The notes: generated by a model not told the origin, from the sequence alone. Numbered from the stretch's first letter, positions 17,719 through 27,182 are shown. The stretch is DNA of 64,000 nucleotides from a candidate division WWE3 bacterium RIFCSPHIGHO2_01_FULL_40_23 (GCA_001772615.1 MEUZ01000001.1:56623-120622); one strand, 5' to 3'. Program-made: numbers and translations.

Positions 17719-18020
17719 CACGCACTGGCTTGTAAGAGATAGATCCATAAGTCCAAACGCTTAGGCGAGAAGACAACAGGATAGTCTTCCAAGGGGCACT
17801 CGGAGCGCAATGTTTTGTCATCCTGAACTTGATTCAGGATCTACAGTAAGATTCCCGCTTTCGCGGGAATGACATCGCATTGCGCGAGAAAGAACGCCGC
17901 GAGTTCTGTGCTATACAATTAATTATTAGAGCTTAGCGGACGTGACCCCGTAGAGGCATATCCTGTTGTCTTCTATAGCAGCGCTAAGCAAAGCTGTGCA
18001 GCATGCTCGCTTTGATTGCC
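17719..18020. repeat. MITE-like repeat copy A (315-bp form; inner 205-bp unit 17769-17973 bounded by TIR GAAGACAACAGGATA / TATCCTGTTGTCTTC)
   Basis: Near-identical to 25455-25661 and to reverse complement of 26877-27182; contains hairpin module 17817-17873. Confidence 0.85.
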
Positions 18021-18051
18021 TGAAGAGGTCCCATTTTAATCCCAATCTGCA

Positions 18052-19170
18052 TTACCTTATAACTCCTCCACCCAAAACCACATCCTCAAGGTAAAACACC
18101 GCGCTTTGACCGGGGGCAACCGAAAGAGCATAATCATCAAGCTCTACATTCAAACTTGAAGCATTTGAGAGAGGGGTTTTTGTACCTAAAACAGAAATTG
18201 CACCCGGCATCTTCTCCCCAAGATTTCTGATTCTAACAGAACATTTTAAAGAACTTAAATTAAGCCTTTTATCCTTCTTATTAACCCAAGAAATATCCGA
18301 CACCTCAAAGTTTTTTCTTTGAACGTCCTTTCCAAATCCTACCGTAATAGTGTTTGCCTTTGTGTCCTTTTTAATGACATAAAGTGGGAGTCCAGTATAT
18401 TTACTCACACTAAAACCGTGCCTTTGGCCTATTGTGTAAAGCTCCGCCCCCTCATGCTCCCCTATCTCATCCCCATTTATATCTAAAACCTTACCCTTTT
18501 TAACTTTTACCCGACTTTTAATAAAGTCCTTAACATCTATATCACCTATGAAGCATATGCCTGTGCTGTCAAGCTTATCATAAGTTGGCAAGCCGGCTTC
18601 TTTCGCTATGATTCTTACCTCCTGCTTTGTTAAATGACCTATGGGAAAAAGGATATGTTTGAGCTCTTTTTGGCCAAGGCGGTACAAAAAGTAGCTTTGA
18701 TCTTTGGCTTCATCCGCCCCTGACGCAAGCGTAAAGGTGGGGTTTTGATGCACAGGCCCACTCAAATATTCAGCAACGTTTACTCCTAGTATCAGTGCAT
18801 AGTGCCCGGTCGCTACATAATCAAATCCATTTTTAAGCGCCCAGTCCAAAAAAAGCCCAAATTTTATCTCCTGATTGCACACCACATCAGGATTTGGCGT
18901 TCTACCAAGTCTAATCTCGGAAAAGAAGTATTTCAGTACCCTCTCCTTGTACTCTTTTTCAAAGTTAAGGTCCATAAGAGGCCTTTCAAGCATAGCTGAA
19001 ACCTTTATTGCATCAGACTTATCCTCATTGCCGCTGCATCCAGGCGCATCGTAATCCCAGCACCTCATGTGTACACCGGTAACAAAAAAACCTCCTTCTT
19101 TCAAAAGAAGCAAAGCAACAGAGCTGTCAACACCACCTGATAAACCTACTGCAACTTTTATTTTTTTCAT
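18052..19170 (-). CDS. mnmA: tRNA-specific 2-thiouridylase MnmA
   Basis: MKKIKVAVGLSGGVDSSVALLLLKEGG PP-loop SGGxDS, catalytic Cys region CNQEIKFG, about 370 aa. Confidence 0.9.
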   Translation of the reverse strand: MKKIKVAVGLSGGVDSSVALLLLKEGGFFVTGVHMRCWDYDAPGCSGNEDKSDAIKVSAMLERPLMDLNFEKEYKERVLKYFFSEIRLGRTPNPDVVCNQEIKFGLFLDWALKNGFDYVATGHYALILGVNVAEYLSGPVHQNPTFTLASGADEAKDQSYFLYRLGQKELKHILFPIGHLTKQEVRIIAKEAGLPTYDKLDSTGICFIGDIDVKDFIKSRVKVKKGKVLDINGDEIGEHEGAELYTIGQRHGFSVSKYTGLPLYVIKKDTKANTITVGFGKDVQRKNFEVSDISWVNKKDKRLNLSSLKCSVRIRNLGEKMPGAISVLGTKTPLSNASSLNVELDDYALSVAPGQSAVFYLEDVVLGGGVIR

Positions 19171-19204
19171 AAGCGGGAAGATTTTAACACGAAAAGAAGG
19201 TTAA

Positions 19205-19762
19205 TTATGAGCTTAAATGCAAAGAATCAAATATCTCAAGGATTTTATCCGCATCCTTATCTTCTATAGAAAAAATCAAAGCCTCCATGTCATCAAAGGA
19301 ATCAAGGACATAAGGCTTTATTTTATCTTGAGGAGATTGTACAAGATCAGTGTTCAAAAGCTTTCTTATACCTGAAATTCTCTCAAGGAGCTTCTCTTGA
19401 TAAGCGGCGTTAAACTGTGATTCTTTAATCTTTTCCTCTGCATCATCTATCTTCTCTAAAATCAGTTCTCTCTTTAAATACATATCCTCCCCTGAAACCG
19501 TAACTCTTATATAAAGCTCGTTCTTATTTAGAAGCTCTAAAAGTTTAAGCCTTGAACCTGAAAACTCCTCTTTTCTTGAGGAAGCACTTGACTCGCTTAA
19601 AGATCTTGTAGCGGAAGAGAAGAAATTGGACAAAGCGGCCCAAAAAGAGCTCAAAAAGGTGGTTTTTTGCTCTTTTTTAACCAAAGATTGCGCAGCTTGT
19701 ACTGCGTTAACAGGGCATAGAAGCCAAATTAGAAGTAATAGAGCTACCAGAACTTTTTTCAT
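19205..19762 (-). CDS. Hypothetical secreted protein (signal peptide MKKVLVALLLLIWLLCPVNAVQA)
   Basis: 185 aa, cleavable signal peptide, coiled-coil-like Lys/Glu rich body. Confidence 0.6.
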   Translation of the reverse strand: MKKVLVALLLLIWLLCPVNAVQAAQSLVKKEQKTTFLSSFWAALSNFFSSATRSLSESSASSRKEEFSGSRLKLLELLNKNELYIRVTVSGEDMYLKRELILEKIDDAEEKIKESQFNAAYQEKLLERISGIRKLLNTDLVQSPQDKIKPYVLDSFDDMEALIFSIEDKDADKILEIFDSLHLSS

Positions 19763-19810
19763 TGTGTAGTGGGAGAGTATAGGATATATTCAAAAATGAG
19801 GCAAATCCTT

Positions 19811-19868
19811 GTCATTCTGACGAAAGTCAGAATCTAGGATTAGATCCTGAATCAAGTTCAGGATGACA
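19811..19868. repeat. Nested-palindrome element (GTCAT-hairpin-hairpin-ATGAC family)
   Basis: gtcattctgacgaaagtcagaatctaggattagatcctgaatcaagttcaggatgac; rc shares hairpin 1 identically with MITE core and hairpin 2 with compensatory changes. Confidence 0.8.
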
Positions 19869-25361: not shown

Positions 25362-25454
25362 TTATCTATAATAGCATGTTGTTTTGCACCTTTAGGCTAT
25401 GAGCAGAAATCAAAATGTATCTTCTCGAAGTTATGTGCTACTTGGTGTGACCAT

Positions 25455-25661
25455 GAAGACAACAGGATATGTCTCTTAAGGGGCACTCGGAGCGCAATGT
25501 TTTGTCATCCTGAACTTGATTCAGGATCTACAGTAAGATTCCCGCTTTCGCGGGAATGACATCGCATTGCGCGAGAAAGAACGCCGCGAGTTCTGTGCTA
25601 TACAATTAATTATTAGAGCTTAGCGGACGTGACCCCGTAGAGGCATATCCTGTTGTCTTTC
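25455..25661. repeat. MITE-like repeat copy B (minimal 205-bp TIR-bounded form)
   Basis: Starts GAAGACAACAGGATAT, ends ATATCCTGTTGTCTTTC; internal hairpin module 25504-25560. Confidence 0.85.
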
Positions 25662-25721
25662 TGACTGGCAGATCCCACTATGGAGGCTTCGGTCTGCAAA
25701 ACAACATGCTATTATAAACGA

Positions 25722-26861
25722 ATGAATGGTCCCAGTGTGGCCTTGGTGCATGACTATCTGATACAAAACGGGGGTGCCGAGAGAGTTCTTGAAGCTATTC
25801 ATGAACTATTTCCCGATTCAGTAGTCTTTACTTCGGTTTTTGAAAAAAACTCTTTCCCCGACTACTATTCCACCTGGAACATCCAAACTTCAGGCGTCTC
25901 AAATCTTCCTTTTTTCAACGTTTTAAGCAAACAGTACACTTTTTTGTATCCCGCCGTTTTTGAAGCATTTGATTTAAGCGGGTTTGACATCATAATTTCA
26001 TCATGGTCAGCCTGGAGTAAGGCAGTTTTAACAAAGCCGAACCAGCTCCATATAAGTTACTGCCATACCCCGCCAAGGTTTTTATATAAATACAAAGGTG
26101 AAACCAGCAAAAGAGATGCCTGGTACTATAAACCCTTTGTCTCCTTTATTGATAACTACCTGCGAATCTGGGACTACAGCGCCTCTCAAAGGCCCGACTT
26201 TCTGATTTCAAACTCCGAAACCGTAAGAAAAAGAATTAAAAAATTTTATAAAAGAGATTCATCTGTAATTTACCCTCCTGTAAAACTTAAAAACAGAGTG
26301 GTGCTTACACAGCGGCCAAACCTTGTTGACACAAACTATTATTTGGTAGTTTCAAGGCTTGCCGCTTATAAAAATATTGATATTGCAATAGCCGCTTTCA
26401 ACTTCCTTGGCCTACCTTTAAGAATTGTCGGAACGGGAAAGGAAGAAGAAAGGCTTAAAAAAATAAATAAAGGAAATGTGGCTTTTCTTGGTAGAGTTAA
26501 CGACAATGACCTAGCCTTTTTATACCAGAACTGTAAGGGGGTAATAAACCCTGTTACGGATGAAGACTTCGGAATTGTCCCGCTTGAAGCATTAAGCTAT
26601 GGGAAACCGGTTCTTGCACATAAATCAGGCGGTCATCTGGAAACCATTGAAGATGGCAAAACCGGAATGCTTTTTGAAGACCTTTCCATTCAGGGGGTAA
26701 TAAAGGCCGTTAAAGCCTTTGATGACGTGGTAAATGCCAATAACTTTGAATCCGAATACCTTAAAAAGTCCGTAGAAAAGTATGACGAAAGCGTGTTCAA
26801 GGAGAGATTTAGAAGTTTGGTTTATGAAAAGTGGGAGGAGAAGGTGCAAACAAGAATTTAG
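25722..26861 (+). CDS. Glycosyltransferase family 4
   Basis: VALVHDYLIQNGGAERVLEAI N-terminal GT4 fold, C-terminal GRVNDNDLAFLYQNCKGVINPVTDEDFGIVPLEALSYGKPVLAHKSGGHLETI; ORF open from 25680 but first 14 codons lie in the repeat. Confidence 0.8.
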   Translation: MNGPSVALVHDYLIQNGGAERVLEAIHELFPDSVVFTSVFEKNSFPDYYSTWNIQTSGVSNLPFFNVLSKQYTFLYPAVFEAFDLSGFDIIISSWSAWSKAVLTKPNQLHISYCHTPPRFLYKYKGETSKRDAWYYKPFVSFIDNYLRIWDYSASQRPDFLISNSETVRKRIKKFYKRDSSVIYPPVKLKNRVVLTQRPNLVDTNYYLVVSRLAAYKNIDIAIAAFNFLGLPLRIVGTGKEEERLKKINKGNVAFLGRVNDNDLAFLYQNCKGVINPVTDEDFGIVPLEALSYGKPVLAHKSGGHLETIEDGKTGMLFEDLSIQGVIKAVKAFDDVVNANNFESEYLKKSVEKYDESVFKERFRSLVYEKWEEKVQTRI

Positions 26862-26876
26862 AATGAGCTATTGAAG

Positions 26877-27182
26877 GCAATCAAAGCGAGCATGCTGCAC
26901 AGCTTTGCTTAGCGCTGCTATAGAATACAACAGGATATGCCTCTACGGGGTCACGTCCGCTAAGCTCTAATAATTAATTGTATAGCACAGAACTCGCGGC
27001 GTTCTTTCTCGCGCAATGCGATGTCATTCCCGCGAAAGCGGGAATCTTACTGTAGATCCTGAATCAAGTTCAGGATGACAAAACATTGCGCTCCGAGTGC
27101 CCCTTAAGAGACATATCCTGTTGTATTTTCGCCTAAGCGTTAAGACTCTTGGATCTATCTCGTACAAGCCAACGCATGCGTG
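26877..27182. repeat. MITE-like repeat copy C (315-bp form, inverted relative to A/B)
   Basis: Reverse complement matches 17719-18020 over about 300 bp including flanks ...CTATAGCAGCGCTAAGCAAAGCTGTGCAGCATGCTCGCTTTGATTGCC; hairpin module 27023-27079. Confidence 0.85.

Follow-up and report, generated by a model that had tools for sequence, protein, structure and literature searches.

The 64,000-nucleotide stretch of DNA analyzed here (the window; one strand, with all coordinates counted from its start) comes from the candidate division WWE3 bacterium RIFCSPHIGHO2_01_FULL_40_23 and contains three copies (A, B, and C) of a non-coding repeat. The repeat is probably a non-autonomous, lineage-restricted, and active nested fold-back element resembling miniature inverted-repeat transposable elements (MITEs) and the REPIN elements. 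Each copy is built from a core, two shoulders, and a pair of outer inverted arms. According to this reading, (i) the insertion unit would be the entire fold-back of 336–369 bp; (ii) mobilization would occur in trans through an enzyme encoded elsewhere, which would probably read the hairpin or cruciform shape together with the short end motifs GCA…TGC, and not a long terminal sequence; (iii) the copies would trade sequence by gene conversion, accounting for their identical interior; and (iv) the arms of each palindrome would be held complementary by selection or by arm-to-arm correction. The landing sites would be very tight gene junctions, namely two abutting stop codons (A), a bidirectional promoter of ~20 bp (B), and the last codons of a GT4 glycosyltransferase gene (C). 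The kind of element is already known; the variant with structure-conserving arms and the setting in the candidate phyla radiation (CPR) are new.

Cores, shoulders, and arms of the three units

Repeat search, direct reading, and alignment placed the three copies at 17718–18021 (A, + strand), 25455–25660 (core of B, + strand), and 26875–27179 (C, − strand). The identity between A and C is 95% over 305 bp and that between the 206-bp cores is 98–99%, in agreement with the first-pass annotation of this DNA, which had described three copies sharing at least 95% identity. The longest open reading frame (ORF) in any frame of the units has at most 66 codons; the units are non-coding. The divergence between the copies is mosaic: ~180 nt of the core interior show no differences among A, B, and C, and 14 of the 15 differences between A and C fall within the first 70 nt. 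The left shoulder and terminal inverted repeat (TIR) of A and C are 17–20% diverged, whereas the remaining 227 nt differ by 0–0.5%. This sharp contrast indicates recent sequence exchange among the copies, probably by gene conversion.

The copies are reproduced at 100% identity in independent assemblies of at least 10 samples made with several assemblers; therefore, the repeat is not an assembly artefact. Among the contigs and loci from other assemblies and from WWE3 relatives (which carry L-numbers), the sequence of unit A also occurs in L001, L002, L004, L005, and L054, and unit B is the same in L002, L053, L055, and, minus 10 bp, L001. The core B of L001, an assembly from the Joint Genome Institute (JGI), is without the 10 bp CGAGAAAGAA (window 25577–25586), which lie between short CG repeats. 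The differences seen in L058 were attributed to scaffold N-gaps and not to biology.

The 15-mer GAAGACAACAGGATA occurs six times in the window at ≤2 mismatches (0.12 expected by chance) and is the tip of a 31-nt imperfect TIR of the core with 84% complementarity. The TIRs of 15 bp that had been proposed as the bounds of the repeat are thus present, but the inverted repeat reaches further inward, and the feature as a whole extends past the coordinates given for it. The right TIR of core B has one mismatch, and the TIRs of core C carry a paired substitution (position 4, G>T at one end and the complementary C>A at the other). The homology of core B to A and C begins and ends exactly at the TIR ends, and the surrounding sequence is different. 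What B has in common with A and C is limited to the sequence between the two TIR tips. The core therefore is, or used to be, a discrete element, enclosed in outer fold-backs of two kinds, and the nested insertion that had been suggested earlier is borne out.

Each core is enclosed in a fold-back of 336–369 bp, at the ends of which lie inverted arms of 15–34 bp that differ from copy to copy (Table 1). The arm pairs are located at 17687–17720/18017–18050 in A (34 nt), 25359–25388/25695–25724 in B (22 nt perfectly paired), and 26851–26879/27177–27205 in C (22 nt perfectly paired), with spacings of 296, 306, and 297 nt, respectively. The window contains 81 inverted-repeat pairs within 450 nt, and these three head the list by length. 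Each arm sequence is confined to its own unit in the window and in the fetched loci, in none of which a donor for the shoulders or arms was found. The shoulders (91–100 nt per unit) comprise 48 + 43 nt in A and C, where they are homologous, and 66 + 34 nt in B, where they are unrelated to those of the other two. From the inside outward, a REP-like double hairpin lies in the loop of an 8-bp stem inside the 206-bp core, which is followed by the shoulders and the arms; the predicted structures of the full units are long, branched hairpins (z = −10.7 to −15.4). The earlier description of two size classes, with extra flanks of ~55 bp on A and C, was incomplete: the flanks exist and measure 48 and 43 nt, but every unit is a fold-back with arms of its own.

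The arms of A and C are both 34 nt long, with GCA…GGCA on one side and TGCC…TGC on the other. Compared in register, they are 50–62% identical (p = 5e-5 to 1.5e-3), a similarity that lies mostly in the end motifs, the interiors alone giving p = 0.03–0.13. A gapped global test (p = 0.13–0.34) had taken all arms to be unrelated between copies, a conclusion that was revised for A and C once the true 34-nt extents were defined. Among the 27 arm positions that are paired in both A and C, 14 are identical, 11 are changed on both sides, and 2 are changed on one side only; positions 28–29 are unpaired in both. These two-sided changes, the paired TIR substitution, and the covarying stems of small modules elsewhere in the window indicate that pairing is conserved and sequence is not, which suggests selection for a hairpin or cruciform recognized by an enzyme, arm-to-arm correction, or both. 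We propose recognition of shape because, between the arms of A and C, length, end motifs, and an internal mismatch are preserved while paired bases have changed on both sides.

Table 1. Positions of the fold-back units, their parts, and adjoining features in the window.
Feature	Position	Strand	Remarks
Left direct repeat ATTACC	17676–17681		Putative target-site duplication; its first base is the final A of the M23 peptidase TAA stop
Unit A	17682–18050	+	369 bp: GTGGA, 34-nt arm, 48-nt shoulder, 205-bp core, 43-nt shoulder, 34-nt arm; fold −175.8 kcal/mol, z = −15
Unit A, left arm (GCA…GGCA)	17687–17720	+	Pairs with 18017–18050; 88% complementarity; 31/34 paired with G-T allowed
Core copy A	17769–17973	+	MITE-like; 31-nt imperfect TIR beginning GAAGACAACAGGATA
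REP-like double-hairpin module (TGTCAT…ATGACA)	17813–17874	+	In the loop of the core stem GCGCAATG/CATTGCGC; also in B and C; families D2/I4
Unit A, right arm (TGCC…TGC)	18017–18050	+	
Right direct repeat ATTACC	18051–18056		Holds the mnmA stop codon (TTA on the + strand)
TATAATA, −10-like box	25367–25373		6 nt upstream of the Na/Ca-exchanger start; right counterpart TATTATA at 25710–25716, 6/7 identical
Unit B	25374–25709	+	~336 bp: 15-nt perfect arm GCATGTTGTTTTGCA, 66-nt unique shoulder, 206-bp core, 34-nt unique shoulder, 15-nt arm; putative outer boundary
Core copy B	25455–25660	+	Homology bounded by the TIR ends
GT4 glycosyltransferase gene	25722–26861	+	Pfam; start confirmed by alignment; resident gene, not cargo
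Unit C	26846–27206	−	~361 bp fold-back; missing in strain allele L053
Unit C, GT4-side arm (GCAAAC…GAAGGCA)	26846–26879	+	34 nt; 26851–26872 is the 22-nt perfectly paired part
Core copy C	26923–27128	−	Paired TIR substitution
Unit C, fpg-side arm	27177–27205	+	22-nt perfect part at 27184–27205, where orientation switches in the flipped junction of L060
Remnant of the former GT4 3′ end and native fpg promoter	27207–27241	+	27207–27223 ~70% identical to the empty allele, then leaderless-type CATGCTAAAAT-N6-ATG

An allele without unit C and the sites of insertion

The 90% cluster of GT4 led to a strain variant, L053, that matches the window at 100% identity over 2,360 bp, unit B included, but has none of unit C, both of its arms being missing as well. 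Since both arms are missing, they belong to the inserted DNA, and since the unit is missing in a sister strain, the element has moved recently. GT4 of L053 ends with KWEEKRSSL and a stop codon, 18 nt downstream of which fpg starts; in the window, the left end of unit C contributes the final five codons of GT4 and its stop (VQTRI, stop). Two local origins of the C arms were considered and rejected: a pre-existing palindrome that served as the target, because neither arm is present in the empty allele, and an inverted duplication of the local target, because the similarity between the C arms and the empty-site region is not significant (p = 0.07–0.09).

A 6-bp direct repeat, ATTACC, borders unit A in two perfect copies (chance probability ~0.004). 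Removal of the unit together with one repeat copy leaves TAA/TTA, the abutting stops of two convergent genes, and this reconstructed site agrees with the 3-bp spacer in the relative L038. At B, the outer part of the arms is a −10-like box (TATAATA/TATTATA) situated exactly 6 nt from each start codon, and the divergent exchanger spacer of the relative L042 is 20 bp long and has overlapping palindromic −10 boxes. We infer that unit B split a shared bidirectional promoter of ~20 bp and that a target duplication of ~7 bp left each gene with a box of its own. The closest relatives (60–67% GT4 identity) keep the gene order M23 peptidase/mnmA … ATPase–GT4–fpg–recF, with spacers of 3 bp at junction A, 21–30 bp at junction B, and 9–12 bp at junction C. 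No empty allele for A or B was found among the strain contigs, of which L054 carries unit A.

The first-pass annotation had taken the repeat to be a mobile non-coding one that needs an enzyme in trans, and the absence of C in L053, the 6-bp repeat at A, and the 3–30 bp spacers in the relatives uphold this view. It had also raised the matter of target-site duplications, for which the outcome was uneven: perfect at A (6 bp), imperfect at B (6/7) and C (~4–5 of 6), and none for the core. As for copies being confined to this window, no outside copy was found in the ~17 kb of flanks or in three DNA collections, yet C is polymorphic and A is bordered by a putative target-site duplication. A non-coding element recently entered junctions 0–20 bp wide, where it rewrote the C-terminus of a protein and, at B, would have divided a bidirectional promoter that two genes had shared.

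Exact occurrences of the 11-mer CATGCTAWWAT are limited to the upstream regions of fpg (27225–27235), GT4 (25705–25715), and the Na/Ca exchanger (25368–25378). The empty allele has the fpg copy as well; therefore, this promoter type is native and not borne by the element. Many genes of the window have a −10-like TAnnnT 6–7 nt before the ATG without a Shine-Dalgarno sequence (e.g., those starting at 21767, 25361, 25722, 27242, 32932, 39773, and 46155), which suggests widespread leaderless mRNAs, and other genes have clear AGGAGG sites.

Proposed mobilization in trans and competing explanations

The survey for an enzyme and for further copies covered the window and ~9 kb past each of its ends (~17 kb of flanks; ~81 kb in total). 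No transposase domain was found in the ORFs of at least 120 aa that were scanned or annotated with Pfam over this span, so the earlier statement that the window has no transposase holds and extends to the flanks; no RAYT or TnpA gene was found there either. The sole recombinase in the window is an Xer-like tyrosine recombinase (61930–62793; XerC/XerA/XerD-like, below the equivalog cut-offs), 35 kb away. Further copies were seen neither in the ~9 kb beyond either window end nor elsewhere in the other ~70 kb examined. In DNA collections, a TIR 18-mer gave 25 single chance matches among the GTDB species representatives, none with a second TIR; a TIR 24-mer gave one chance match, in a coding region, in JGI metagenome contigs; and the TIR search of IMG/VR viral contigs gave one chance match. 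BLAST against plasmids and phages returned nothing except a 27-nt hairpin (described below), and the six-frame translation, concatenated and searched as a protein, had no match. The literature search returned nothing relevant on MITEs in the CPR, inverted target duplications, or invertons in Patescibacteria.

A suggestive resemblance, at the level of sequence, was found in the WWE3 relative L042 (GCA_964373525.1), where a 168-bp non-coding element (6782–6949) lies in a 700-bp spacer upstream of fpg and may be related to the core. Its 24-nt TIR, AGAAGTGGAAGGGTATATCCTTCA, is 96% complementary and ~56% identical over 39 nt to the core TIR (A)GAAGACAACAGGATATG.CTCT. The L042 element shares with the core its non-coding nature, its TIR-like ends, and its position upstream of fpg; it is shorter and has neither the hairpin module nor long copy-specific outer arms.

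Among known systems, the units most resemble bacterial MITEs (Correia/CREE of Neisseria, ERIC, RUP, and Nezha), which are likewise non-coding, multi-copy sequences of ~200–370 bp with TIRs and long hairpins, located in intergenic junctions, polymorphic for presence and absence, dependent on an enzyme in trans, and flanked at one or more copies by a short direct repeat. They differ from classical MITE families, whose members share TIRs, in that (i) the outermost inverted repeats differ between copies; (ii) the core has no target duplication; (iii) several palindromes are nested at each other's centers; and (iv) no family-wide TIR matching an insertion sequence or transposase was found in the 81 kb and the three DNA collections. 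The REP/REPIN elements, which are associated with RAYT, an IS200/IS605-like Y1 HUH enzyme, are also hairpin repeats in which pairing is kept over sequence through compensatory changes; they are thought to move structure-specifically with only a short terminal motif, and the TGTCAT…ATGACA modules are REP-like. The present units are 3–4 times longer than REPINs and have several layers; one of them is flanked by a 6-bp direct repeat, a product not known from REPINs; and the GTAG-type foot motif is missing, the ends being GCA/TGC, with no RAYT/TnpA in the 81 kb. The Rickettsia palindromic elements (RPEs) are similarly palindromic selfish repeats of a reduced genome with no known transposase that insert into genes and RNA genes, as do the copy that replaces the GT4 C-terminus and the hairpin module inside the 23S rRNA gene. 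However, there is no sequence relationship, and RPEs are inserted into ORFs in frame and have neither the nested fold-back design nor the copy-specific arms.

Several observations weigh against the mobile-element reading. No autonomous partner or donor copy was found in the sequence and collections searched, the TIR matches in the three DNA collections are at chance level, and only three copies were seen, all within 9.5 kb. The B arms are unrelated to those of A and C, so a single enzyme must tolerate very different ends. The direct repeats are perfect at A only: that of B (TATAATA/TATTATA, 6/7) is confounded by palindromy, the flanks of C (AAGGT/CAGGA) form an imperfect direct repeat (~4–5 of 6), and for the core there is none. 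Next to insertion C, on its fpg side, 16–20 nt differ from the empty allele at 5–6 positions, all else being identical, a cluster more in keeping with error-prone repair synthesis than with a clean transposase reaction. Finally, the empty allele is represented by one 2.5-kb scaffold, the other end of which carries an inverted duplication resembling a snap-back artefact: positions 1–50 of L053 are the reverse complement of its positions 97–146 (window 24526–24575), joined at a CT/CC microhomology. This 5′ end is either a snap-back artefact of the library or assembly or a real inverted duplication.

The first alternative to a transposing fold-back element involves no transposase: template switching or fold-back break repair at palindromes (microhomology-mediated break-induced replication or snap-back) would copy a nearby element into a stalled fork or break. 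Clustered changes are typical of error-prone repair synthesis, and those within ~20 nt of insertion C, in an allele otherwise identical, together with the tight clustering of the three copies within 9.5 kb and their absence from the other ~70 kb, keep such replication- or repair-based copying a live rival. The lack of a transposase in ~81 kb, the microhomology at the snap-back end of L053, the preserved arm-to-arm complementarity, and an ATP-dependent DNA ligase encoded nearby (32932–34710) are also in its favor. However, the homology of B reaches to the two TIR tips and no further, as would be expected of a discrete transposed unit; unit A has a clean 6-bp direct repeat, and clean short direct repeats are typical of staggered-cut transposition; the C arms are not derived from the target; and the left shoulder of C is 17% diverged from that of A, so C was not copied from its neighbor A. 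We consider template switching an unlikely source of the copies.

A second alternative is that each unit is an inverton that flips between its own arms and so turns a promoter-like box, TGCTATACA, to face the neighboring genes or point away from them, a behavior that could coexist with mobility. The geometry fits, with ~300 bp between inverted repeats of 22–34 bp in intergenic positions, as in the invertons fimS and the Bacteroides PSA promoters (~300 bp, intergenic, inverted repeats of 20–35 bp), and the core motif TGCTATACA resembles the native extended −10 boxes of this genome. One contig, L060 (JGI 3300025015), shows the opposite orientation of unit C: the reverse complement of 26851–26976 is joined to 27184 onward through a 22-bp perfect arm and matches the flipped prediction at 60 of 60 positions. 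Since L060 carries a C-specific single-nucleotide polymorphism, it is not a chimera with copy A. By contrast, flipped junctions appear in one of the eight contigs at the fpg side of C, in none of the 15 at A, and in none of the 9 at B; the flipped part of L060 is a 126-nt contig end, about one read long; and template switching during polymerase chain reaction or assembly at a 22-bp inverted repeat gives the same junction, with L053 showing that snap-back ends occur in these data. Unlike known invertons, the units have no dedicated invertase adjacent to them, their arms share no recombinase-site consensus beyond GCA/TGC, and their interior is a repeated mobile element. Furthermore, TGCTATACA is not enriched, and a sigma-70 scan found no promoter within the units. 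Inversion of the unit C interior between its arms is accordingly tentative, the element may flip in place, and we regard an inverton as an unlikely account of the three units. If the L060 flip is real, phase variation in a bacterium without the usual invertases could be tested simply on this element.

A third reading combines mobility and flipping, in that the units would be self-inverting fold-backs whose arms, instead of being fixed binding sites for a transposase, are freely evolving self-complementary stems, and a structure-specific enzyme would move, and perhaps flip, the units by recognizing a hairpin or cruciform of defined length with GCA/TGC feet. We hold this to be unlikely. If true, it would represent a mode of mobility that has yet to be described in CPR bacteria and might also act as a phase switch independent of recombinases, and a flip would turn the internal promoter towards fpg-recF or against GT4.

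It is very improbable that the units are duplicated genes for structured non-coding RNAs (~360 nt, with a long variable closing stem) and not mobile DNA. The predicted folds are very stable, and the closing stem has 11 two-sided A/C changes and a conserved internal mismatch. However, homology to a conserved non-coding RNA, which would have argued for such genes, was not found in Rfam, where there was no match at the gathering threshold and only chance-level hits at E ≤ 10, and promoter (sigma-70) and terminator scans within the units gave no signal. A sister strain has no unit C, which in the window truncates a protein-coding gene; none of the relatives examined has the units at the orthologous junctions; and the copies stand in both orientations relative to their neighbors.

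The least credible alternative, which we all but discard, is that GT4 is carried by a composite-transposon-like or invertible cassette with B and C as its ends, as the first-pass annotation had proposed from their opposite orientation around this gene; the arrangement itself is correct (the true GT4 start is 25722), the cores of B and C are 99% identical over 204 bp, inverted, and 1,264 bp apart, and homologous recombination between them is physically possible, but GT4 lies between a P-type ATPase gene and fpg in the same orientation in the element-free relatives L038 and L052, and all four contigs that span B–GT4 (three of which also span C) have the single GT4 orientation of the window, so the cassette is not supported. 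In L053, moreover, B and GT4 are present and C is missing, and each core still lies inside its own matched arms and shoulders, which excludes a net inversion through the cores since insertion. GT4 is a resident gene lying by chance between two insertions; rare recombination between the two 204-bp inverted cores is possible.

Hairpin modules and genome setting

Free-standing modules related to the double hairpin of the core occur at 5670–5731, 19810–19871, and 29324–29400. The hairpin ATCCTGAATCAAGTTCAGGAT was found both empty and with a second hairpin in its loop. A GC-rich hairpin, CCTGCCTGCCGGTAGGCAGG, lies inside the loop of an ATCC(Y)G(R)ATCAAG…GGAT hairpin at two sites (28150–28196 and 29354–29400), and this host hairpin is unoccupied elsewhere (17819–17839 and 19840–19866). 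The occupied and unoccupied states of the host hairpin are direct evidence of insertion into hairpin loops, and the hairpin-in-hairpin cases indicate that insertion at palindrome centers recurs in this genome. Nested hairpins, together with arms that keep their pairing and not their sequence, point to mobilization that recognizes structure.

The 23S rRNA gene (2962–6041) is ~155 nt longer than the model and holds core-type REP-like modules, especially at 5569–5731; palindromic repeats have therefore been inserted into an rRNA gene as well. The 27-nt hairpin TGTCATCCTGAACTTGATTCAGGATCT (17816–17842) is 100% identical to positions 388408–388434 of a Sulfurovum mangrovi plasmid (NZ_CP087125.1), a match that, on sequence grounds, hints that the small hairpin family occurs across phyla.

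The host is an uncultured bacterium of the WWE3 group from groundwater at Rifle. To our knowledge, mobile DNA in the highly compact (~1 Mb) CPR genomes has been poorly described. Many contigs in the present data end within the repeat; such elements break short-read assemblies, and knowledge of the element helps to finish CPR genomes. The window has several hallmarks of the CPR, namely a split 16S rRNA gene, unlinked rRNA genes, and an intein in FtsH. The 16S rRNA gene (11675–14206) spans 2.5 kb and includes an insert of ~1 kb that encodes a LAGLIDADG_2 homing endonuclease (ORF 12469–13227); 16S inserts bearing LAGLIDADG genes are typical of CPR rRNA introns. Two LAGLIDADG_1 ORFs (1572–2051 and 2379–2864) lie between the 5S and 23S rRNA genes (864–2864), and the strain variant L050 has two additional LAGLIDADG ORFs and a diverged 23S-flanking sequence. 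The 16S and 23S genes are 5.6 kb apart (6041–11675), separated by a radical SAM gene, an MFS fragment, ORFs of unknown function, and two tRNA genes on opposite strands. The FtsH gene (53529–56669) carries the intein, which was identified by its Intein_splicing domain.

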